Part shown: positions 29,842 to 57,049 of the stretch, in pieces
Numbering within the stretch: position 1 is the stretch's first letter
Layout: each line of letters starts with the position of its first letter
Source: a bacterium
GTDB taxonomy: Bacteria; Actinomycetota; Acidimicrobiia; Spongiisociales; Spongiisociaceae
Assembly (NCBI GenBank): GCA_028821575.1
Contig: JAPPFW010000051.1
Coordinates: forward strand, 15,465 to 79,464
Direction: 5' to 3'
Length of the DNA stretch: 64,000 nucleotides
Translations under genes and position numbers: made by a program
The notes under the pieces: model-generated
What the model saw: only the letters and a program-made list of their open reading frames with translations
The model's database searches: none
Told to the model about the DNA's origin: nothing

Positions 29842-30672
29842 TTGGCGGTTGTTGCACTGAACACGGGCGTTGACCTCTACTACGAGTGGCACGGCGCGGC
29901 CGATGGCCCACCGGTCGTATTCGTGCGCGGTACCGGCGCCGACGGATCCCGATGGCTACCCCAGGTGGAGGAGTACCGTCACCGGTACCGGTGCCTGATC
30001 TTCGACAATCGCGGATCGGGAAGGAGTTCGGCCCCCCCGGGCCCCTACAGCGTCCCGATGATGGTGGAGGACACCATCGCGCTTCTGGACCACCTAGGGA
30101 TTGAGACGTGCCACCTGTCCGGCATGTCGCTGGGCGGTGCGATCTCGCTCAGGCTGGCCATCGACTTTCCGGAGCGGGTGACGACCCTGCAACTCCACGG
30201 CGCCTGGGCGAAGACCCACGGCTACGCCAAGATGTACCTGTCGTTGCTCGGGCGGTTTCTCGAGGAGGGTGGTCTGGACTTCTATTACGAGGCCGCGCTG
30301 CTCTACCTGTTCCCGCCTGACTTCCTGACCGAGCACTACGACCTCGCGCAGGAGATGCTGGCACGGATGAAAGCCAACTCGTCACCCATCGATGGGCTCG
30401 CCGGACAGATCGCAGCCAACCTGACGCATGACGAGGCGGACCGTCTGTCCCTCGTCCGGGCGCCCACGCTCGTAACGGTGGGGGAACTCGACATGTGCCT
30501 GCCGCCGTTCTTCAGCCGTGAACTCGCCGACGGGATCCCCGACGCGGAGCTGGTGGTGTTTCCCGGCGGGTCGCACCTGTTCGGCATGCAGGATCCGGTC
30601 ACCTTCAACCGGGTGACGCTCGACTGGCTGGCAGGGCAGCAGGGACCAGCCGCTCCGGGTCCCGGTGGGTGA
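29842..30672 (+). CDS. alpha/beta-fold hydrolase (3-oxoadipate enol-lactonase-like)
   Basis: 276 aa with the nucleophile elbow GMSLGG, an HG oxyanion region and a C-terminal GGSHL motif. Confidence 0.85.
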   Translation: MAVVALNTGVDLYYEWHGAADGPPVVFVRGTGADGSRWLPQVEEYRHRYRCLIFDNRGSGRSSAPPGPYSVPMMVEDTIALLDHLGIETCHLSGMSLGGAISLRLAIDFPERVTTLQLHGAWAKTHGYAKMYLSLLGRFLEEGGLDFYYEAALLYLFPPDFLTEHYDLAQEMLARMKANSSPIDGLAGQIAANLTHDEADRLSLVRAPTLVTVGELDMCLPPFFSRELADGIPDAELVVFPGGSHLFGMQDPVTFNRVTLDWLAGQQGPAAPGPGG

Positions 30673-31270
30673 GCGGTTTCCTGCTGGGGAGGCCGGTTCG
30701 GAAGAGCGACGCATACGGATCCTGGCCATACCCGGCAGCCTCAGGAGGGCCTCGTACAACCGGAAGTTGCTCGAGGCAGCGAAGCGGCTCGCCCGGGCTG
30801 CTGTCGAAGTCGACATCTACGACGACGGGTTGCGGATACCGCTGTTCAACGAGGACTCCGAGGGGGACCTCACGCCACAGCCGGTGCTGGAGTTGCGTGC
30901 CAGGATCCGCTCGGCCGACGCAGTGCTCATCGCGTCTCCCGAGTACAACGGCAGCATCACGGGTGTCCTGAAGAACCTGATCGATTGGGCATCGCGCCCG
31001 TACGGCCGGTCTGCGTTCGAAGGCAAGCCGGTGTCGGTGGTGGGTGGGAGCCCATCCCGGTTCGGCGCTCAGAGGTCCCAGCAAACCGCGATCGCAGTCC
31101 TCGGGAGCGCCGGGGCGAGGGTCGTCGGAGGTCCGCACCCGGTCAAGAACGTCTTCTCCCTGGTCGACCCGGACGGGTGTCTCAGCGATCGAGCAACACT
31201 CGAGATGCTTCAGAGCGTATTGGACGAGTTGGCCGCAGTTGCCGGGGCTTCCACGGAGGGAGGTTCCTGA
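30665..31270 (+). CDS. NAD(P)H-dependent FMN reductase family protein
   Basis: ILAIPGSLRRASYNRKLL...PEYNGSITGVLKNLIDW matches the flavodoxin-like FMN_red pattern. Confidence 0.8.
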   Translation: MGERFPAGEAGSEERRIRILAIPGSLRRASYNRKLLEAAKRLARAAVEVDIYDDGLRIPLFNEDSEGDLTPQPVLELRARIRSADAVLIASPEYNGSITGVLKNLIDWASRPYGRSAFEGKPVSVVGGSPSRFGAQRSQQTAIAVLGSAGARVVGGPHPVKNVFSLVDPDGCLSDRATLEMLQSVLDELAAVAGASTEGGS

Positions 31271-31417
31271 CCGGCCCGGCGCCGGCGGGCCCAGAACACG
31301 GATCCGAGGTTAAGCGTTCCGTAGCCGGCCTAGGCCACGGCCGGCGGTGTGACCGATCCCGCGATGGCCGCCCGGTCGACGAGGCCGGCGAGCACCGTCC
31401 CACCGCCATGCCCAGAC

Positions 31418-31648
31418 GGGTAGTTCCAAGCGATCGGACCGGCAAGGGTTCCCTTGCGATCGGTACATAACAAACCACACACAAACACCTCTTACGCACT
31501 GCTCCGGGGTTCTTGGCACGGGCTCCGAATCCTTCTGATCGTGAATGCCACCCGAGACGTGACTCGGAACCGGGGATACCGCCACTGAGGCAGGGAACAT
31601 GACCCAACCACAACCGACCACTTCCAGAAACCCCTTGGAACTAACCAT
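31418..31648 (-). repeat. copy 2 of a hairpin-closed structured intergenic element (candidate ncRNA or MITE-like)
   Basis: Aligns end-to-end with 46023-46270 (+). Complementary termini TAGTTCCAAG/CTTGGAACTA. Conserved hairpin CCGAG-N6-CTCGG at 31552-31567. It starts 27 nt after the co-oriented cotransporter stop. Confidence 0.6.
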
Positions 31649-31677
31649 CTGGCTGGCACTTTTCCGTGGGGGACTCC

Positions 31678-32814
31678 TCAGCGGAGCAGAGCGACGCCGA
31701 CGAGCGGCACGACGATGAAGGTTCCCACCACATAGGCCACGGCCAGCAATCGCCGCTCGACTGCCACCTTGGCCAGGGTCTCGGCTGCACGGATGGGGAT
31801 CTCCCGTAACGGCGTGATCGGGTAGAGCAGCAGGATCCCGCCGATGTTGAACAGGGTGTGGACCAGCGCGATCGTGAGGGCTTCGGGCCTGCTGGTTGCG
31901 AGAGCCGCCAGCAATGCCGTGATAGTGGTGCCGACATTGGCTCCCAGGGTGACCGGGTAGGCGTTACGCAGCGATAGGACACCGGCGGCGGACAGCGGGA
32001 TCAGCATCGATGTGGTGATGCTCGATGACTGCACCGAGATCGTGATCGCCACCCCCACCAGCAGGGCGACTATGCCGCTGCCTTTGCCGAGAGCCGTGTT
32101 CAGGGACTGCTCCACGCGGGCCGCCACGAGTCGGCGCATGCTCTTGGTTACCAGCGCGAGCGCGAGCAGCACGGTCACTATCCCGCAGACGACGAGCAGC
32201 GCGCCGAGCGTGTTGCCAACTGCCCCGACGCCGCTCCACAGATCTTCGAGCCAGCCGACCGGTTCCTTCACCCACGCCTTCACAGGACTCTTCCACTCGG
32301 TGCCGGCCGAGCCGACCAGCGGCTCGCTGATCCGCTGGGCGAGACGCGAAATGGCTTGGGTCGTCAACTCGAGAGGCAACAGGATCGCAACGATCGCCAC
32401 GTTGAAGAAGTCGTGCACGGTCGCCGCCGCGAAGGCTCGCTTGAACTCGAACGACCGTCTCGCATGTGCGAGTGACACGAGGGTGTTGGTCACCGTAGTG
32501 CCGATGTTGGCGCCCATCACCATGGGCACGGCATACTCGAAACCCAGCGCGCCGGAGGCGACGAGACCGACGATGACCGATGTGCTGGCCGAAGATGACT
32601 GCACCAGCACCGTGCCGAGGATTCCGATGAAGAGTCCGGCGAGCGGGTTCCTGACGCTGGAGAAGAGTGCCTCCTGGGTGTTGCCGCCCAGGTGGCCGAT
32701 GCCGGACTCGAGCGACGAGACACCGACCAGGAACAGGTAAATCAGACTCGCCACCAGCCCCGCTCTCACCAGTGGGGACCTCAACGGATCCTCCACCCTG
32801 GCCGGAATGGTCAT
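31678..32814 (-). CDS. Na+/phosphate cotransporter (NptA/PNaS) family protein
   Basis: Duplicated GANIGTTVTN / GANVGTTITA motifs. Start taken at MTIPARVEDP (ATG 32814) rather than the track start at 32937. Confidence 0.85.
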   Translation of the reverse strand: MTIPARVEDPLRSPLVRAGLVASLIYLFLVGVSSLESGIGHLGGNTQEALFSSVRNPLAGLFIGILGTVLVQSSSASTSVIVGLVASGALGFEYAVPMVMGANIGTTVTNTLVSLAHARRSFEFKRAFAAATVHDFFNVAIVAILLPLELTTQAISRLAQRISEPLVGSAGTEWKSPVKAWVKEPVGWLEDLWSGVGAVGNTLGALLVVCGIVTVLLALALVTKSMRRLVAARVEQSLNTALGKGSGIVALLVGVAITISVQSSSITTSMLIPLSAAGVLSLRNAYPVTLGANVGTTITALLAALATSRPEALTIALVHTLFNIGGILLLYPITPLREIPIRAAETLAKVAVERRLLAVAYVVGTFIVVPLVGVALLR

Positions 32815-32882: not shown

Positions 32883-32939
32883 GGGCACAGGGCAGGAGGC
32901 AAGGGCCGGTGGCCGGTGGGCGGTGAGCACTGGGCACAG
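32883..32939. repeat. heptanucleotide tandem array (GCCGGTG-type units)
   Basis: GCCGGTG GCCGGTG GGCGGTG AGCACTG GGCACAG, preceded by GGGCACA GGGCAGG AGGCAAG. Roughly complementary to the array at 33101-33177. Confidence 0.75.
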
Positions 32940-33100: not shown

Positions 33101-33177
33101 CCAGCACCCAGCACCCAGCACCCGGCACCCGGCACCCGGCACCCGGCACCCAACACCCAACACCTAGCCCCTAACCC
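33101..33177. repeat. heptanucleotide tandem array, 11 units
   Basis: (CCAGCAC)x3 (CCGGCAC)x4 (CCAACAC)x2 CTAGCCC CTAACCC. The last units contain the TAG stop and the last codons of the amidohydrolase gene at 33164. Confidence 0.85.
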
Positions 33178-38740: not shown

Positions 38741-40297
38741 ATGGGAAAGATCACCTATGCCACCATGTCGGCCGACGATCCGGCTCTCCATCGGGCCTAC
38801 GAGGAGGGCCTGGCCGCCGCCACCTCCGCGATCGGGCAGACACATCCGCTGCTGATCAACGGCGAGAAGCGGTACACAGGCGAGACATTCACCGAGCGGT
38901 CCCCGATCGATTCGGACCTGGTGGTGGGGATCTACTCGCAGGCCTCCGATGACGACGTGGACGAGGCCGTAGCCGCCGCCGCCGCCTTCCAGCCGGAGTG
39001 GGAGGCGACTCCATGGCAGGAGAGACTGGCCATCATCCGGCGGGCGGCGGAGATCGTGGATGAGGAGACTCCCACCCTCGCCGGGTTCCTGACTCTGGAG
39101 GTCGGTAAGAACCGGCTCGAGGCGCTGGGCGATGTCTCCGAAGCGGTGGCCTTCATCGACTACTACTGCGACCGGCTCGAGGAGTCCGACGGGATGTCGA
39201 CCGCCATGGGACAGTACGGGGTGGGGGACACCAACCACTCCGTGCTGAGGCCCTGGGGAGTGTGGGCGGTCATCTCACCCTTCAACTTCCCGCTCGCCCT
39301 GGTCGCCAGCCCCACGTCCGCGGCTCTGCTGACCGGCAACACCGTGGTGCTGAAGCCGTCGAACACCGGCGCGCTGGGCTCGCTGCTTCTTGCCGACATC
39401 TACTCGCGGGCCGGGCTGCCCGCAGGCGCCCTGCAGGTGGTGACCGGGGGTGACGAAGCGGGTGACCGCCTCGCTCATCATGACCACGTGGACGGGGTCA
39501 CCTTCACCGGCTCCTACGACGTCGGGATGTACCTCTACCGGACGGTGGCCACCGGTCGCCCCAAGCCCGTAGTTTGCGAGATGGGCGGCAAGAACCCCGC
39601 GGTGGTGGCGGCCTCAGCCGACCTGGATCTGGCCGCCGAAGGGGTGATGCGGGCTGCCTTCGGGCTCTCCGGACAGAAGTGCTCGGCCAACTCCCGGGTG
39701 TATGTGGAGCGGCCCGCCTTCCGGGAGTTCCTGGACCTGCTCACCGAGAAGACCGATGAGATCCTCCTGGGGGACCCGCGCGATCGCGAGACCTTCCTGG
39801 GACCGGTGATCGACGGCGAGGCGGTGGACCGTTTCCGTTCCGCGGTGGAGGCCGTGAGAGAAGCTGGAGGCGAGGTGCTCTCCGGTGGCGAGGTGGTTAC
39901 GGATGGTGACCTGGCCAGGGGTAACTTCGTGCAACCCACGGTGGTGACCGCGCCGGAGGACACCTGGATCTGGGAGAAGGAGCTGTTCGTACCGTTCGTG
40001 GCGGTGACCTCGGTGGACTCTCTCGAGGAGGGGATCGACAAGGCCAACGACACGATCTTCGGGCTCACCGCCGGGGTCTTCGCCGGCACCGACGAGGAAG
40101 TCGATCTGTTCTTCCAGCGGATCCAGGCCGGGGTGGTATATGCCAACCGCCGGGCGGGGTCGACCACCGGGGCGTGGCCGGACATCCAGCCCTTCGGAGG
40201 TTGGAAGGGTTCGGGCACCTCGGGCGCCGGCAGCGGCGGTCCCTGGTACATGCGCTCCTACGTACGCGAGCAGGCCCGCACCCTGATCAGAGAGTAG
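38741..40297 (+). CDS. NAD(P)+ aldehyde dehydrogenase (P5C / 2-oxoglutarate-semialdehyde dehydrogenase-like)
   Basis: 518 aa with VCEMGGKNP (Glu) and GQKCSA (Cys) catalytic motifs. AAGGAA RBS. Confidence 0.9.
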   Translation: MGKITYATMSADDPALHRAYEEGLAAATSAIGQTHPLLINGEKRYTGETFTERSPIDSDLVVGIYSQASDDDVDEAVAAAAAFQPEWEATPWQERLAIIRRAAEIVDEETPTLAGFLTLEVGKNRLEALGDVSEAVAFIDYYCDRLEESDGMSTAMGQYGVGDTNHSVLRPWGVWAVISPFNFPLALVASPTSAALLTGNTVVLKPSNTGALGSLLLADIYSRAGLPAGALQVVTGGDEAGDRLAHHDHVDGVTFTGSYDVGMYLYRTVATGRPKPVVCEMGGKNPAVVAASADLDLAAEGVMRAAFGLSGQKCSANSRVYVERPAFREFLDLLTEKTDEILLGDPRDRETFLGPVIDGEAVDRFRSAVEAVREAGGEVLSGGEVVTDGDLARGNFVQPTVVTAPEDTWIWEKELFVPFVAVTSVDSLEEGIDKANDTIFGLTAGVFAGTDEEVDLFFQRIQAGVVYANRRAGSTTGAWPDIQPFGGWKGSGTSGAGSGGPWYMRSYVREQARTLIRE

Positions 40298-40402
40298 TGG
40301 TTAGTGGTTAGTGGTTAGTTAGAATAGTTGACGCCCAGCGTGGATAGGCAGCGCCACAAGCCACAAGCCACAAGCCACTAATCACAAGCCACAAACCACT
40401 AC
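40297..40402. repeat. bipartite heptamer-array hairpin filling a convergent intergenic spacer
   Basis: (GTGGTTA)x3 at 40297-40317, and (CCACAAG)x3 CCACTAA TCACAAG CCACAAA CCACTAC at 40354-40402. The arms are imperfectly complementary, and both flanking stop codons lie inside array units. Confidence 0.85.
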
Positions 40403-41586
40403 AAATGATCCAGGCTCCGGTCGACGAAGGTGCGGTCGGTTGAGAACGGCGAGTCCTGTATCCGGGAGGTGATCAGGTCCGCGAGGATCCTTCCCCCGGC
40501 CGGGGAACACATGATGCCGTGCCCGGAGTATCCGGTGTTCACCCACAGGCCGGCGACGGGAGTCGGTCCGATCAGGGGACGGTGGTCGGGGGTCATCGTG
40601 TACTGCCCGGAGTGGACGATCCAGGAGAACTCCCCGGCTCTCCAGGCCTCGCCCCAGAAGGGACTGATCCGCGCTGCGGCCTCAGAACGGGAGGGATCCA
40701 GCACCCGGAAGGCCATGTCGTGGTCGGGAGGCACATCCTCCACGGGATCCCGGCCCGGTCCGCGGGGAGCGGCGTCGAGCACGTGGGCTCCCGAGAGGAC
40801 GGGTCGCCAGTGCACCCCGGTGTCGTCGTCGATGGTCATCGGAGCGTCGGGCGGTACCCGGGCCAGATCGGGAATCACCACCTTGTGGCGCGGCTTCACC
40901 TTCAGCGGGAGGTCCACCCCTGCGAGAGCGGCCAGCTTGGCGGTGAAGGGTCCGGCGGCGATCACCACCTGCTCCGCCCGTATGCTTCCCCGGTCGGTGC
41001 CCACGTCGAAACCACCCGAGGGGAGCTCCCGGAGGGACACCACCCGGCAGGAGGTGTGGAGCGGGGCTCGTGATGCCCGCAGCAGACCGAGTGTCAGGGC
41101 CCTGGGATCGACGAATCCGTCCCCGGCGCGGTAGCGGGCCTGGACCACGTCGGGGCTGAGGTACGGGAACATGCGGCGGGCCTCGTCGCCACCGAGGATC
41201 TCGATGTCGGTCTGCCCCCAGGAGTGCTGGAGAGCCACGAGCCGCCGCTGCTCCCCGGCCCGCTTCTCGGAGGTGGTCGCCCAGATGTATCCCGGCTGCC
41301 GGATCCCCAACGGGCGGGAGTCCTGGCCGGTGATCGAGGCGAAGTCGAGGATCAGCTCGACCGACTCCCGCACCAGTTCGGTCTCCTCAGGATTGTCGAA
41401 CTGGAGGCGGAAGGCGCCGGTGGCCACGGGAGTAGTGAGGGCGGCTGGGACGGGCAGGGCTTCCAGAACCACCGTTGACAGCCCGGCCCGAGCCGCCCAG
41501 AACGCAGTGGACGCGCCCACCACCCCGGCGCCGACGATCACCAACTCTGCACCGGCGGGGATGGTGCCTTCAACGTTGGACAGCAT
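40399..41586 (-). CDS. FAD-dependent oxidoreductase (DAO family; D-hydroxyproline / D-amino-acid dehydrogenase-like)
   Basis: Dinucleotide motif VIVGAGVVGAS near the N-terminus. Start taken at MLSNVEG (ATG 41586). Confidence 0.85.
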   Translation of the reverse strand: MLSNVEGTIPAGAELVIVGAGVVGASTAFWAARAGLSTVVLEALPVPAALTTPVATGAFRLQFDNPEETELVRESVELILDFASITGQDSRPLGIRQPGYIWATTSEKRAGEQRRLVALQHSWGQTDIEILGGDEARRMFPYLSPDVVQARYRAGDGFVDPRALTLGLLRASRAPLHTSCRVVSLRELPSGGFDVGTDRGSIRAEQVVIAAGPFTAKLAALAGVDLPLKVKPRHKVVIPDLARVPPDAPMTIDDDTGVHWRPVLSGAHVLDAAPRGPGRDPVEDVPPDHDMAFRVLDPSRSEAAARISPFWGEAWRAGEFSWIVHSGQYTMTPDHRPLIGPTPVAGLWVNTGYSGHGIMCSPAGGRILADLITSRIQDSPFSTDRTFVDRSLDHL

Positions 41587-45407: not shown

Positions 45408-45968
45408 ATGGCCGACACACCCTGCCCCGCGGCAGACGGATCCAGTCCCCTCCGCCGCAAGTTCCGGAGACCGCCCCCGATGTGCATCGACGCCTCCAAG
45501 TCCTACACCGCGGTGATGGACACCTCGATGGGGTCGATCACCATCGAACTCGACGCCGCCGCAGCTCCCCGCACCGTGAACAACTTCGTGGTTCTGTCCC
45601 GCTACCACTACTACGACAACGTGATCTTTCACCGCATCATCAAGGGTTTCGTCTGCCAGGGCGGCGATCCCACCGGTACGGGTCGGGGCGGGCCCGGCTA
45701 CCGCTTCGCCGACGAGTTACCGGGGCCGGGTGGCTACCAACTGGGCTCGCTGGCCATGGCCAACGCCGGGCCGAACACCAACGGCAGCCAGTTCTTCATC
45801 ATCAGCGGCTCCGACGGCACGCGGCTCCCGCCGCTCTACGCGCTGTTCGGCAAGGTGGTGGAGGGCTTGGACGTGGTGGACGCGATGGAGAAGGTCCCGA
45901 CCGACCGCAACGATCGCCCGCTGACCGACGTGACCATCAACTCGGTGACGATCACGGAGTCGGACTGA
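45408..45968 (+). CDS. cyclophilin-type peptidyl-prolyl cis-trans isomerase
   Basis: FHRIIKGFVCQGGDPTGTGRGGPGY and MANAGPNTNGSQFFI blocks. ATG at 45408 follows GAGGAA. Confidence 0.9.
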   Translation: MADTPCPAADGSSPLRRKFRRPPPMCIDASKSYTAVMDTSMGSITIELDAAAAPRTVNNFVVLSRYHYYDNVIFHRIIKGFVCQGGDPTGTGRGGPGYRFADELPGPGGYQLGSLAMANAGPNTNGSQFFIISGSDGTRLPPLYALFGKVVEGLDVVDAMEKVPTDRNDRPLTDVTINSVTITESD

Positions 45969-46022
45969 TCCGGACCCGGTGCTGGAGGCTCGCGTCACCA
46001 CGCACCGCCGTTGCCCACATAG

Positions 46023-46270
46023 GTGGTTAGTTCCAACGGGTTCGTGAAGTGGTCAGTTGTCAGTTGTCAGTGGGCAGTGATAGGTTGGGTCATGTTACCT
46101 GCCTCGGTGGTGATACTCCCGTTTCCGAGTCACGTCTCGGGCGGCTTTCATGATCGGAAGGATTCGGAGCCCCGTGCCGAGAACCCAGGAGTAGTGGTTG
46201 AGAGGTGTGTTGTGCTGTGTTGTTACCGAGGGCAAGGGAATCCTTACCAGCCGATCCCTTGGAAACCACT
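46023..46270 (+). repeat. copy 1 of a hairpin-closed structured intergenic element (candidate ncRNA or MITE-like)
   Basis: Homologous to 31648-31418 (-). It contains six in-phase heptamers (46049-46090), the hairpin CCGAG-TCACGT-CTCGG (46125-46140) and the 3' hairpin GGCAAGG-GAAT-CCTTACC (46231-46248). Its ends pair: GTGG/CCAC and TTCCAA/TTGGAA. Confidence 0.6.
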
Positions 46271-46379
46271 CGTATAGACCCGCTTCGGCATCGAGTCCGG
46301 CGTTGACCCCACGGCGATGTGAACGGGTGGCTTGGTACAGTGGCCGCGCCCACGATGGATCGAAGGAGCACTCCTGACC

Positions 46380-47099
46380 GTGCCGGCCCCTGCATCGTCC
46401 TCCCGCCACGTTGCGCTGCTCGTTGACGGTGACAACGCCCAGCCGTCCCTCATAGAGCCCATCCTGAGCGAGGTAGCCAAACACGGTGTGATAACGACTC
46501 GGCGCATCTACGGGGACTGGACCATGCCTGAGATGTCGGGCTGGAAGAAAGGGCTGCAGACCTATGCGATCCAACCCATCCAACAGTTCCGATATACGAA
46601 GGGCAAGAACGCTACCGACAGTGCGCTGATAATCGATGCCATGGATCTGCTGCACACCGGAGCGGTAGACGGATTCTGCATAGTCTCCAGCGATAGCGAC
46701 TACACGCGGCTGGCCACACGGATTCGTGAGCAGGGTCTCTTTGTCATGGGGATAGGCCGCCGGCGTACACCGAGCTCATTGGTGAACGCATGCGAGGTCT
46801 TCGTATACACCGAGAACCTCGTGCAGTCGGAGGGGTCTTCGCGTGACCAACTCACATCGAAACAGCGCTCGGAGTGGGTCACCACCATGGGTCTCGCCAT
46901 AGATGCGGTCCTGCAGGAGGATGGTTGGGCGAACCTCGGAGAGGTCGGCGCCCAGATAGGCAAGCTGGATCCTGCTTTCGATTCCCGTAGCTATGGCTTC
47001 TCGCGGATGTCGCTGCTCGTCAAGTCTCGACCTGACGTCCTGCAAACGGAGGAGAGGATGATCGGCGGCCAGGCACAGATCTATATCAAGCGGGCATAA
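46380..47099 (+). CDS. NYN (LabA-like) ribonuclease-fold domain protein with C-terminal OST-HTH/LOTUS domain
   Basis: VALLVDGDNA...RRIYGDW...DSALIIDAMD...IVSSDSDYTRLA (NYN), then GWANLGEVGAQIGK...SYGFSRMSLLV (LOTUS). The GTG at 46380 is 11 nt after GAAGGAG. GC is below the window average. Confidence 0.8.
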   Translation: MPAPASSSRHVALLVDGDNAQPSLIEPILSEVAKHGVITTRRIYGDWTMPEMSGWKKGLQTYAIQPIQQFRYTKGKNATDSALIIDAMDLLHTGAVDGFCIVSSDSDYTRLATRIREQGLFVMGIGRRRTPSSLVNACEVFVYTENLVQSEGSSRDQLTSKQRSEWVTTMGLAIDAVLQEDGWANLGEVGAQIGKLDPAFDSRSYGFSRMSLLVKSRPDVLQTEERMIGGQAQIYIKRA

Positions 47100-51614: not shown

Positions 51615-53501
51615 TTACCGTCCTCGATACGGTGACCAGGCCGGCCTATTGGCACCTTCGGCCAGCAGCCAGGATTCCGAACTGGCGATGTCCACCACCC
51701 AGACCTCCGAGCGGCCATCGCATACGGTGGAGTAGGCCAGGTGGCTCCCGTCGGGTGACCATGCCAGAGCCCATCCGAAGTCTCCGGTCACCGGACGGCC
51801 ACCGGACCCGTCGGCATCCATCACCATGACACGGTTCTCGACGTAGGCGATGCGGTCTCCATGCGGAGACCACACCGGGCTCGAACCGCTGGACAGCTGC
51901 CGCGGGCTGTCGCCGGAGGGATCCGTCACCCAGACCTCGTTCGTGAGGTCGTCAGCCTTCTCGTAGGCGATACGGCGCCCGTCCGGCGACCACGCAGGCG
52001 CTAGACCGTCGATCAGCCGCCGGTGGTGGCCAGCGTCGGAGGCCACTATCCGAACCTCGCGACCGGAGCCGGCAACCCACCGGTTGTAGATGATGTGGGC
52101 GCCGTCCGGTGACCAGCTCAGGTTCAAGCCGCCGTAGCTGGCATTCGGCCGCCAGTCGTAGGTGAGCCGCCGCCGGGTACCGGTCTCCGCTTCCACCACC
52201 CAGACTGCTCCACCATGCCCGGAGTAGGTGATGAGATGCCCGTCCGGCGACCACGCAGGTTCCGAACCCCTGCGAGCCAACCGCCGGGCTCCGGCGCCGT
52301 CGGCGTCCATCATCCAGAGTCCGACACCCTCCCCATCCGTTCTAGTGTAGGAGATGCGGCTTCCGTCCGGCGACCACACCGGTCCCCGACCGTCGGCAAG
52401 CCGCCGGTGACCGGCCCCATCAGCCACCCATATCTCGGGAACGTGCTCGACCCTTCTGGAATAGGCGATCCGGCTTCCATCGGGCGACCAGGCCGGATGG
52501 CCTCCTCGCGCGGCCAGCTTCCGCCGGTCCCCCCGGTGGGTGTCCACCACCCAGAGGTCGAATACGTACTCGTCACGCCTCATCTCCAGGTAGATGATGT
52601 GGCTCCCATCCGGAGACCAATGCGGGCCCGAACCGTTGCGGGTCAACCAACGCCGGTTGCTGCCGTCCGCGTCCATCACCCAGATCCCGGAGCGCTCACC
52701 TCCGTCGCGGTAGGCGATACGGCTCCCGTCCGCCGACCAGACCGGCTGGGTACCGCCGACCAGCCACCGCCTGTCGCCGCCGTCCGCATCCATGACCCAC
52801 ACCCCGCGATCCGGACCCGACTCGTAATAGGCGATACGGCGCCCGTCCGGCGACCACTCGGCCTCCGATCCTCGGTCGGCGACCAGCCGGTGATCGCTGC
52901 CGTCCGCGTCCATCGTCCAGATCCCGCCGTTGTTGTAGGCGACACGGTTCCCGTCCGGCGACCACACCGGGGCCCAACCGTCGGTCAGCCGCCGCGGGTC
53001 GGTGCCGTCCGCGTTCATCACCCAGACCCCGACAGGGTCGTCCCACTCTTCGTAGGCGATGCGGCTCCCGTCGGGTGACCACACCGGGCTCGAGCCCTGG
53101 TCGGCCAGTCGCTGCGGGCTCGCGCCGTCGGCGTCGATGGTCCAGATCCCGCCGCTGTCCGATTCTTCGTAGGCGATGCGGTTCCCGTCGGGTGACCACA
53201 CCGGGTTCGAGCCGTGGTCGGCCAGTCGCTGCGGGTTGGCGCCGTCCGGGTCTGCCACCCAGATCCCGGCACGGCTGTGGTCCGGTCTCTGGCTGTTGTA
53301 GGCGATAGTCCCCGAACCGAAAGCAGCCGTATTCCCCACCGCCGAGAGGGTTACCGGGGAACCACCCTCAGCGCCCTCCCGCGAACACGCATCCTTGCCC
53401 GCCGCGCTCTCGGGCACCCCCACCGACCACCCCACCATGGCGGCGGCGGCCAGGAACCCTGCGAGCCACTTACGGCCAGGTCGCAGACTGCGTCCCGTCA
53501 T
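51615..53501 (-). CDS. secreted PD40/TolB-like WD40-type beta-propeller repeat protein (about 13-14 blades)
   Basis: Start MTGRSLRPGRKWLAGFLAAAAMVG (ATG 53501). 13-14 repeats of the W-S-P-D-G-x-R-I-A-Y motif. Confidence 0.85.
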   Translation of the reverse strand: MTGRSLRPGRKWLAGFLAAAAMVGWSVGVPESAAGKDACSREGAEGGSPVTLSAVGNTAAFGSGTIAYNSQRPDHSRAGIWVADPDGANPQRLADHGSNPVWSPDGNRIAYEESDSGGIWTIDADGASPQRLADQGSSPVWSPDGSRIAYEEWDDPVGVWVMNADGTDPRRLTDGWAPVWSPDGNRVAYNNGGIWTMDADGSDHRLVADRGSEAEWSPDGRRIAYYESGPDRGVWVMDADGGDRRWLVGGTQPVWSADGSRIAYRDGGERSGIWVMDADGSNRRWLTRNGSGPHWSPDGSHIIYLEMRRDEYVFDLWVVDTHRGDRRKLAARGGHPAWSPDGSRIAYSRRVEHVPEIWVADGAGHRRLADGRGPVWSPDGSRISYTRTDGEGVGLWMMDADGAGARRLARRGSEPAWSPDGHLITYSGHGGAVWVVEAETGTRRRLTYDWRPNASYGGLNLSWSPDGAHIIYNRWVAGSGREVRIVASDAGHHRRLIDGLAPAWSPDGRRIAYEKADDLTNEVWVTDPSGDSPRQLSSGSSPVWSPHGDRIAYVENRVMVMDADGSGGRPVTGDFGWALAWSPDGSHLAYSTVCDGRSEVWVVDIASSESWLLAEGANRPAWSPYRGR

Positions 53502-55864: not shown

Positions 55865-55943
55865 CTTCGCTCGCCGACGGAACGAAGACGCTGCGTACCG
55901 GTCCGGCGAGGGCTGCACGCTGCGATGGCGGTGACACACCGCT

Positions 55944-56048
55944 GGTCAGTGGGCAGTGGTGGATGGTGGATGGTGGGCAGCGAGAAGGGCTACCAGCCAC
56001 CAGCCGTCAATGGTCGTCTACCAACTCACTGACAACTGACAACTGACA
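55944..56048. repeat. 105-nt tract of 15 in-phase heptamers
   Basis: GGTCAGT GGGCAGT GGTGGAT GGTGGAT GGTGGGC AGCGAGA AGGGCTA CCAGCCA CCAGCCG TCAATGG TCGTCTA CCAACTC (ACTGACA)x3. The outer units are complementary (GTCAGT/ACTGAC). Confidence 0.85.
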
Positions 56049-56164
56049 ACGGAGAAGGGATCGCCTATGAAGAACATGTCCGGTAGGTCCCCATTGGTTG
56101 GCGGGCTTGGCTGCCCGGCCGTCCCGCCCGGTCCGTTGCCTCTCTCCGGCTCGGGAGTGCTTCC

Positions 56165-57049
56165 GTGGTAGAGGTGGATGTAGCCGTCCGGGCTAATGCG
56201 CTGCTCGGTGAGTGCCCGCTCTGGAGTCCCGAGGAGGGGGTGCTCTACTGGGAGGACATCGACGGTCGGTTGGTGCACCGCTATGACCCGGCCACCGGCG
56301 AGGACCTGACCCGGGAACTGCCGGGACGGCCCGGCTCGATGGTTCTCACGTCGGAGCCCGGGAGGCTGCTCATCGCATCGGAGACCGAACTGGTCTGGTT
56401 CGACTGGTCGACCGGAAGCACCAATCCTTGGGTAACTCTGGAACCACCGGGAACCGGAAACCGGATGAACGACGGCCGTACGGACCCGGCGGGCCGCTTC
56501 TGGGTGGGCTCGATGTACGAGTTCGCCGACGACATGCGCCATACCGGTAGCATGTACCGGATCGAGGGCGACGGGTCGTTCACCGTCACCCGGGGCGGGG
56601 TGGGAGTACCCAACGCGCTGGCCTTCGACACCGAACGGGACCGGATGTACTGGGCCGACTCCCTGACCCGCACCGTGCTGTGCTACGACTACGACCTCGA
56701 GACGGGAGAGGCCCGCAACGAGAGGGTCTTCGTCGAGTTCGGCGACCTCCCGGGACGGCCGGACGGGGCGTGCATCGACGTCGAGGGCTGCTACTGGGTG
56801 GCGGCGGTCCGCGGCTCGGCGGTGCTGCGGTTCACTCCCGACGGCGCCGTCGACCGCAGGATCGACCTGCCCGTGACCAAGCCCTCGATGACGGCATTCG
56901 GCGGATCCGACCTGGGAACCCTGTTCGTGACCTCGATCGGAGGCGGGGGTAGCCATGCGCGGGATGCCGCCGAGCCGCGAGCCGGTGACCTGTTCGCCAT
57001 CGACCCCGGTGTCGCCGGACTACCCGACGCTCCCTTCGCAGGTACCTGA
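56165..57049 (+). CDS. SMP-30/gluconolactonase/LRE-family lactonase
   Basis: 294 aa with ECPLWSPEEGVLYWEDI, NDGRTDP.GRFWVGSM and PNALAFD blocks. Confidence 0.85.
   Translation: MVEVDVAVRANALLGECPLWSPEEGVLYWEDIDGRLVHRYDPATGEDLTRELPGRPGSMVLTSEPGRLLIASETELVWFDWSTGSTNPWVTLEPPGTGNRMNDGRTDPAGRFWVGSMYEFADDMRHTGSMYRIEGDGSFTVTRGGVGVPNALAFDTERDRMYWADSLTRTVLCYDYDLETGEARNERVFVEFGDLPGRPDGACIDVEGCYWVAAVRGSAVLRFTPDGAVDRRIDLPVTKPSMTAFGGSDLGTLFVTSIGGGGSHARDAAEPRAGDLFAIDPGVAGLPDAPFAGT

Follow-up and report, generated by a model that had tools for sequence, protein, structure and literature searches.

The window, that is, the whole stretch of 64,000 nucleotides that was analysed, carries two homologous intergenic segments, at 46019–46277 on the plus strand and at 31652–31412 on the minus strand, which are about 80–82% identical to each other (MAFFT and blastn). 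Copy 1 lies between a cyclophilin-type peptidyl-prolyl isomerase (PPIase) gene (45408–45968, plus strand; gene tables and Pfam PF00160), which ends with its stop codon about 51 nt before the insertion, and an NYN/OST-HTH (LabA-like) gene (46380–47099, plus strand), which starts 103 nt downstream of the copy. The element proper of copy 1 occupies 46023–46273 (plus strand), that is, 251 nt between two ATAG repeats, as delimited by alignment with the empty sites of the related loci L003/L004 and L023. Copy 2, including both inverted ends, spans 31412–31652 (minus strand; 241 nt, from alignment and repeat search). It follows a Na/Pi cotransporter gene (31678–32814, minus strand), the stop codon of which is about 26–30 nt upstream, and faces an FMN reductase gene (30665–31270, plus strand). 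Because the latter is convergent with the cotransporter gene, copy 2 has no downstream gene in its own orientation and is therefore no 5′ leader. The element measures 251–257 nt in copy 1 and 233–241 nt in copy 2, in both cases below 500 bp, a size typical of MITEs, and its GC content is 55–57% versus 66% for the window.

The end-to-end alignment of the segments 46000–46300 (plus strand) and 31680–31390 (minus strand) with MAFFT showed that the central 230–260 nt match at about 82%, and blastn aligned 187 nt at 82.4% (E = 1.6e-46) plus a further 41 nt at 85%. These results confirmed the pairing that had been proposed in an earlier sequence-only reading of this DNA. All the identical blocks listed there were found in both copies, as was the hairpin CCGAG-N6-CTCGG; the second hairpin described, GCAAGG-N4-CCTTGC, was also present, with a C.A pair in copy 1. 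The proposed 1-nt indel between the copies lies after GGATTCGGAG, and the proposed 21-nt indel corresponds to a 22-column gap in a region of heptamers, offset by a 1-nt gap. Two more small indels, of 3 nt and 1 nt, which lie where the sequence is rich in GT, had been overlooked.

In the 81 kb of the contig that were scanned, just these two copies were present, at unrelated intergenic sites. The earlier reading had pointed to BLASTN as a way of counting additional copies; the two in the window were recovered, and no third one was found. An nhmmer profile built from the two copies likewise gave no third copy when run over all 32 loci retrieved, among them about 17 kb of source-contig sequence outside the window. 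The invariant 19-mer of the element had no match in genome contigs and two chance matches in metagenome contigs, the source assembly not being among these contigs. A pattern combining the terminal inverted repeats (TIRs) with a conserved block gave two chance matches in low-GC genomes and none in viral contigs, in collections that did not hold the source assembly, and a second pattern gave none in viral contigs. No blastn match to the element was obtained in plasmids and phages. Since a JGI contig, L010, contains the 19-mer yet was not returned by the scan of one collection, absence in these scans is weak evidence. A transposase gene or a longer element with the same ends was found neither in the 81 kb of contig nor in any fetched locus. 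The sole insertion sequence seen in a relative, a DDE_Tnp_1 plus DUF4096 insertion sequence in L006/L007, was considered as a partner and rejected, its ends GAGGCTGTCG being unrelated.

Filled and empty sites in related strains

Orthologous loci were retrieved through the neighbouring proteins, whose nearest named relatives are metagenome-assembled 'Actinomycetes' and 'Acidimicrobiales' bacteria. In reverse orientation, the ENA scaffold ROBB21-1_SAMN13943213_METAG-scaffold_513 (ERZ23495471; 96,703 bp), which NCBI lists as JAPPLC010000089.1 of GCA_028819595.1, matched the window without a mismatch over the 45 kb compared. From the sample labels, we infer that the samples belong to sponge microbiome studies. 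Copy 1 is identical in eight contigs from three ROBB21-1 samples and absent from three contigs of another study, L003, L004 and L023, whose NYN protein is 99% (L003/L004) or 100% (L023) identical to that of the window. The spacer between the PPIase and NYN genes is 154–155 nt long in these three loci versus 411 nt in the window, and the flanks of the empty sites align up to the element ends. The block that they lack comprises 257 nt (46020–46276), its register being ambiguous within the repeated ATAG, and the blastn junction 768/771 of L003 corresponds to 46019/46277 of the window. The conserved upstream region of the NYN gene starts exactly at the insertion point of copy 1.

The filled site in the window reads CCCACATAG, then the element (GTGGTTAG...AACCACTCGT), then ATAGACCCGCTTCGG, so that copy 1 has CCCACATAG on its left and ATAGACCCGC on its right, and the empty sites read CCCGCACCG/ACCCGCTTCG in L023 and TCCACACGG/ACCCGCTTCGG in L003, with a right flank that begins with ACCCGC in both. 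ATAG flanks copy 1 on both sides (46019–46022 and 46274–46277, plus strand), and a single 4-mer, ACCG/ACGG, is found in the empty sites. Comparison of the window with L003 and L023 identified ATAG as a candidate target-site duplication, of which the true extent is TA, TAG or ATAG; the pre-insertion allele would read CACA-TA-GACCC. As judged from these alleles, the copy 1 site is a filled versus an empty site with a putative TA-containing target duplication of 2–4 bp, a classical signature of transposition.

A rearrangement was observed at the same place in L005 (227–9356), whose NYN protein is 87% identical. There, an inverted 7.7-kb block with SpoIID, sensor kinase and MMPL genes lies between the PPIase and NYN genes, and homology to the window restarts at window position 46279, no more than 2 nt from where copy 1 is inserted. 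The L005 contig also harbors a SMODS/SAVED (CBASS-like) pair along with a reverse transcriptase gene.

Copy 2 was found at the same site in L008, where it is identical, and in L010, L011 and L009; the DNA identity of the adjacent gene is 100% for L008, 99.6% for L010/L011 and 96.7% for L009, in which just the first ~45 nt of the copy are visible before the contig ends. It is absent from L012, L013, L014 and L015, whose neighbouring protein is 86–89% identical and whose spacers between the convergent genes measure 44 nt (L012/L013), 73 nt (L014) and 95 nt (L015) versus 407 nt in the window. The presence and absence of the element between very close strains shows that the element is mobile, and the strain distribution indicates that copy 2 is therefore the older and copy 1 the recent insertion. 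The right junction of copy 2 is ambiguous, since the L012 spacer matches both the sequence adjacent to the element and a similar motif ~115 nt further on, and divergence in the closest element-free strains is too great for the exact right junction and duplication to be read from this comparison.

The short metagenome contigs L009, L010 and L011, assembled from other samples, all terminate within copy 2 (L009 11161–11200, L010 1701–1861 and L011 1280–1369, at about positions 45, 160 and 90 of the element). The assemblies may have broken here because the element is a multi-copy repeat or because its heptamer array is unstable, and the breaks inside the element hint at more copies.

Two further observations concern this neighbourhood. 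The 150 nt between copy 2 and the stop codon of the FMN reductase gene (31271–31420, minus strand) have no counterpart in relatives without the element; similar motifs, CCGTCTGGGCATGGCGG and GTTCTGGGCCCGCCGGCG, stand at their two ends and correspond to one and the same motif of L012, and the segment may represent a duplication or a second insertion. Moreover, sample NGUY21-1_SAMN17524323, to which L003 and L012 belong, is without both copies, and there the NYN protein is 99% identical to that of the window and the Na/Pi cotransporter, 14 kb away, 89%. This contrast reflects either mosaic divergence (recombination) or two strains in the sample.

Inverted ends, direct repeats and mode of movement

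The complementary ends noted in the sequence-only reading are real. In copy 2, a repeat search evaluated against shuffles gave a 5′ inverted repeat CCAGATGGTTAGTTCCAAG (31634–31652, minus strand) and a 3′ inverted repeat CTTGGAACTACCCGTCTGG (31412–31430, minus strand), which are complementary at 17 of 19 nt (89%), with a score reached by 0 of 5000 shuffles. In copy 1, the 5′ terminal inverted repeat GTGGTTAGTTCCAAC (46023–46037, plus strand), homologous to the repeat of copy 2, matches, with a gap, the reverse-complemented 3′ end, CTTGGAAACCAC (46258–46269, plus strand), in the form GTGGT(TAG)TTCCAA / TTGGAA-ACCAC, with a score reached by 49 of 5000 shuffles. The gap in this repeat, and the four extra nucleotides (TCGT) between its 3′ end and the direct repeat, count against an assignment to MITEs. 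The TIR core GGTTAGTTCCAA is common to copy 1, copy 2 and L009, and the consensus of the ends is about CAGRTGGTTAGTTCCAAG, 16–19 nt long and imperfect.

Target-site duplications had been named as a feature to look for, and the two copies differ in this respect: ATAG was found at copy 1, and the corresponding 4-mers of copy 2, CCAG and CTGG, are complementary rather than identical. These outer 4 nt sit where copy 1 has ATAG, and CA and TG take the positions equivalent to the TA of copy 1, so that copy 2 is without an intact direct repeat. They may be flank rather than element, and the comparison with L014/L015 suggests flank for at least the left CCA. In older MITEs, direct repeats wane with time (PMC10969869), and we infer that CCAG and CTGG are such a decayed duplication.

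The missing direct repeat of copy 2 also fits a mobile element of another class that makes no target duplications, namely an IS200/IS605-derived, IS110/IS1111-type or REPIN-like element inserting at small hairpins, in which case the apparent extended inverted repeat would partly be a split target palindrome. The complementary flanks GCCAGCCAG ... CTGGGCATGGC of copy 2 are in line with such a target, as are the hairpins found at the place of copy 2 in relatives without the element (GGCAGC-N12-GCTGCC in L015 and GCCG-N8-CGGC in L012), the sequence CCGT-CCAC-ACGG, which in the L003 empty site adjoins the insertion point of copy 1 on its left, and the location of both insertions closely behind stop codons, a place at which hairpins resembling terminators are to be expected. 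However, the hairpin at the copy 1 site is not conserved in L023, Rfam gave no match to HEARO/omega-type RNA, and the 19-nt ends of copy 2 and the shared core GGTTAGTTCCAA are typically seen in DDE transposons but not in IS200/IS605, IS110 or IS91. Because these long inverted ends and the clean ATAG repeat at the young copy fit a DDE element better, we regard the whole of this explanation, including the split palindrome, as rather unlikely.

As a MITE, the element would be a non-coding remnant of an insertion sequence, about 230–250 nt long, which has kept only the ends bound by the transposase. A DDE transposase encoded elsewhere in the genome would presumably move it in trans, acting on the two ends and inserting the element into intergenic DNA with a short TA-containing duplication, probably by a cut-and-paste or copy-in mechanism. 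We take a TA-containing duplication of 2–4 bp to suggest enzymes like those of IS630/Tc1 or IS5/IS701. Any effects on neighbouring genes would be incidental: read-through transcripts would gain a hairpin-closed 3′ extension, and the promoter of the NYN gene would be shifted 257 nt away from the PPIase gene.

Heptamer arrays, coding capacity and RNA structure

Copy 1 contains a tandem array of the heptamers AGTGGTC/AGTTGTC (46048–46079, plus strand; 4.6 units by TRF, and alignment), which accounts for the 21-nt indel between the copies. The array of copy 2 consists of two units, GTGGTCG GTTGTGG (31608–31621, minus strand; strain alignment), versus three units in the 99.6%-identical L010/L011. 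As these alignments show, the internal array is unstable, expanding and contracting.

Intergenic heptanucleotide tandem arrays are pervasive in this lineage, with a unit that varies by locus and a copy number that varies by strain. Besides 46048–46079, arrays were found in the window at 32904–32925, 33101–33168, 40295–40319, 40353–40399, 55957–55976, 56028–56050 and 56446–56465, and in relatives at L015 2617–2797, 9632–9710 and 9776–9929, L003 1–103 and 1717–1788, and L012 1–55 and 597–642. Their units include CCAGCAC, TAGTGGT, GCCACAA, ACTGACA, ATTCACC (x26) and TTCACCA (x22). At 40293–40405, the whole spacer of ~100 nt between convergent DAO-type oxidase and aldehyde dehydrogenase genes is made up of heptamers, with (TAGTGGT)n opposing (GCCACAA / AACCACTA)n in a partly inverted arrangement that could form a long imperfect hairpin; the L015 counterpart is 290 nt long and has other heptamer arrays. 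At 55940–56066, a short spacer is bordered by GTCAGTGGGCAGTG and (CAACTGA)x3, and an RBS-like GGAGAAGGG and an ATG at 56067 follow closely. In direct or reverse-complement form, these units recur as the heptamers within copy 1, with a blastn match of 24 nt at 96% (E = 3e-5). A 10-mer shared by the 5′ end of the element and the heptamer array at 40311, GTGGTTAGTT, was considered as a link and rejected because such a match is expected by chance with ~250 possible 10-mers. A repeat of another kind, a 117-nt tandem repeat at 52935–53273 with 2.9 copies and 78% matches, belongs to a minus-strand ORF of 628 aa without a Pfam match; the self-similar blastn matches at 51.8–53.3 kb reflect this internally repetitive protein, which is conserved in L003, L006 and L007.

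We know of no description of such heptamer arrays in Actinomycetota. They resemble the cyanobacterial STRR and the TAACTGA repeats of Beggiatoaceae (PMC4679880), and the CAACTGA x3 array at 56028–56050, just upstream of a gene, is one base off the latter unit. The arrays described here differ in that their unit varies by locus and that they occur in another phylum, and the likeness implies no tie to the mobility of the element.

An ORF that starts with MVSS runs across each copy (84 aa and 112 aa), and the first ~50 residues of the two align, which could be taken to mean that the element encodes a small protein. However, the frame is broken between copies 1 and 2 by 1-nt and 4-nt indels in the alignment, and L010/L011 differ by an additional 7-nt heptamer, which places an in-frame TAG after 14 codons, and by a 1-nt deletion. 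The ORF was never called by gene callers in the source assemblies, and homologues were found neither in a word-indexed search of 5.8 billion clustered proteins nor in an exhaustive HMMER search of 1.84 billion representatives. The third-position GC content of the ORF, which had looked low in the earlier reading, amounts to 0.64 for the first 50 codons and to 0.59 for the whole ORF, versus 0.73–0.90 in five neighbouring genes. The frame breaks, the stop codon in L010, the low third-position GC and the lack of homologues in these searches bear out the earlier claim that the element is not protein-coding, and a small protein, to which we assign next to no probability, is refuted for practical purposes.

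The other explanation considered was a structured non-coding RNA, either an sRNA or a 3′-UTR module, which would be kept for its fold (the closing stem and the CCGAG and GCAAGG hairpins), would act on the upstream transcript and would be mobile only secondarily. Both copies lie 26–55 nt downstream of a stop codon in the orientation of the upstream gene, and MITE transcripts are described as forming stable stem-loops that can serve as terminators or sRNAs (PMC10969869). The fold of copy 2 is more stable than those of its shuffles (z = −2.95), largely through the long terminal stem, and RNAalifold gave four pairs changed on both sides; the latter result comes from two sequences without statistical power, and its structure is unlike either single fold. 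On the other hand, the folding energy of copy 1 is unremarkable (z = +0.55; 142 of 200 shuffles fold as well), its GCAAGG hairpin is broken by the C.A pair, and covariation is not demonstrable from just two sequences. The closing stem is explained by the inverted repeats.

Searches for known RNAs agree with the earlier statement that the element belongs to no recognised RNA family: a scan of the entire window against Rfam gave no match at the gathering score, and searches of the two copies at E ≤ 10 had best E-values of 0.77 and 9.6, far below gathering. ARAGORN found no tRNA or tmRNA, and neither a consensus promoter nor an intrinsic terminator was found at the element.

The divergence between strains tells against a conserved fold as well. 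The element differs from that of L010 by 3 SNPs in 154 nt plus two indels, with 3 of 379 third positions changed in the adjacent gene, and from that of L009 by 6 of 39 nt plus indels, with 26 of 379 third positions (6.9%) changed. The element thus diverges at least as fast as the third codon positions of the adjacent gene, which reveals no detectable constraint, the counts being small and the power of a comparison of two or three sequences low. Two of the L010 differences (G>A and a deleted G) strike the same predicted helix end without compensation. The identical blocks had been read as a sign of structural conservation, but their lengths fit random scatter: when the differences were permuted over the 233 columns, at about 80% identity, 46% of permutations had a longest run of 19 or more (P = 0.46) and 14% had four runs of 13 or more (P = 0.14). 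Furthermore, the element is dispensable between near-identical strains, being absent from a strain with an identical neighbouring NYN protein. Taken together, these results did not uphold the structured sRNA or 3′-UTR reading, which we now consider improbable. A mobile RNA module with a transcript function of its own seems to us likewise improbable. Such a module might act in the 3′ UTRs of the many genes to which it had spread, as a stabiliser or terminator, or it might be an orphan guide-type RNA, mobilised in trans, of a recombinase or nuclease that is guided by RNA; it would insert at terminator hairpins without a classical target duplication.

Assignment of the element and comparison with known repeats

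Prokaryotic MITEs are defined as AT-rich, intergenic sequences of less than 500 bp with inverted repeats of ~4–30 bp and with direct repeats in younger copies (PMC10969869), and the element fits this published definition. We therefore think it probable that it represents a new MITE family with an unstable internal heptamer array; this assignment rests on two insertion loci, and copy number, end consensus and duplication are each read from very few events. Of the two alternatives put forward in the sequence-only reading, the MITE-like element was borne out by the empty sites in sister strains, the ATAG repeat at the young copy, the 16–19-nt ends, the absence of coding capacity and the low GC content, and the new structured sRNA or 3′-UTR element was not.

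On this assignment, the element is an ordinary kind of bacterial repeat and not a new structured RNA. A new MITE family in an uncultured, little-studied lineage of sponge-associated actinobacteria changes little beyond annotation; it also illustrates that a plausible-looking 'conserved structured RNA' in intergenic DNA can be explained by transposition. Copy 1, present in one sponge sample set and absent from another, is a strain-level insertion marker. For questions of repeat instability and assembly breaks, the heptamer arrays, both the internal one and those in other intergenic regions, may be of more interest than the element itself.

Among known systems, MITEs derived from IS630/Tc1-mariner and from IS5/IS701 have TA or NTAN target duplications. 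Copy 1, with TA within ATAG, is compatible with them, whereas copy 2 has CA and TG at the equivalent positions. Prokaryotic MITEs in general, such as Correia/NEMIS of Neisseria, RUP of Streptococcus pneumoniae, QMITE2 of Coxiella burnetii and MITEAba12 of Acinetobacter (PMC10969869), share with it a size below 500 bp, imperfect TIRs, the lack of a transposase gene, an intergenic and AT-richer nature, strain polymorphism, a short direct repeat at a young copy, and an end-closed transcript hairpin, which for our element is a prediction. It differs from them in having no sequence similarity to anything searched, in its host, an uncultured GC-rich sponge-associated actinobacterium, and in being seen at two loci. 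The BrickBuilt MITE of Porphyromonas gingivalis (PMC4596501) is similar in being small, intergenic and bounded by inverted repeats, with an internal tandem array of variable unit number. In BrickBuilt, a 23-nt repeat makes up most of the element, whereas the array described here, with 2–5 units of 7 nt, is a minor part of it, and the two sequences are unrelated.
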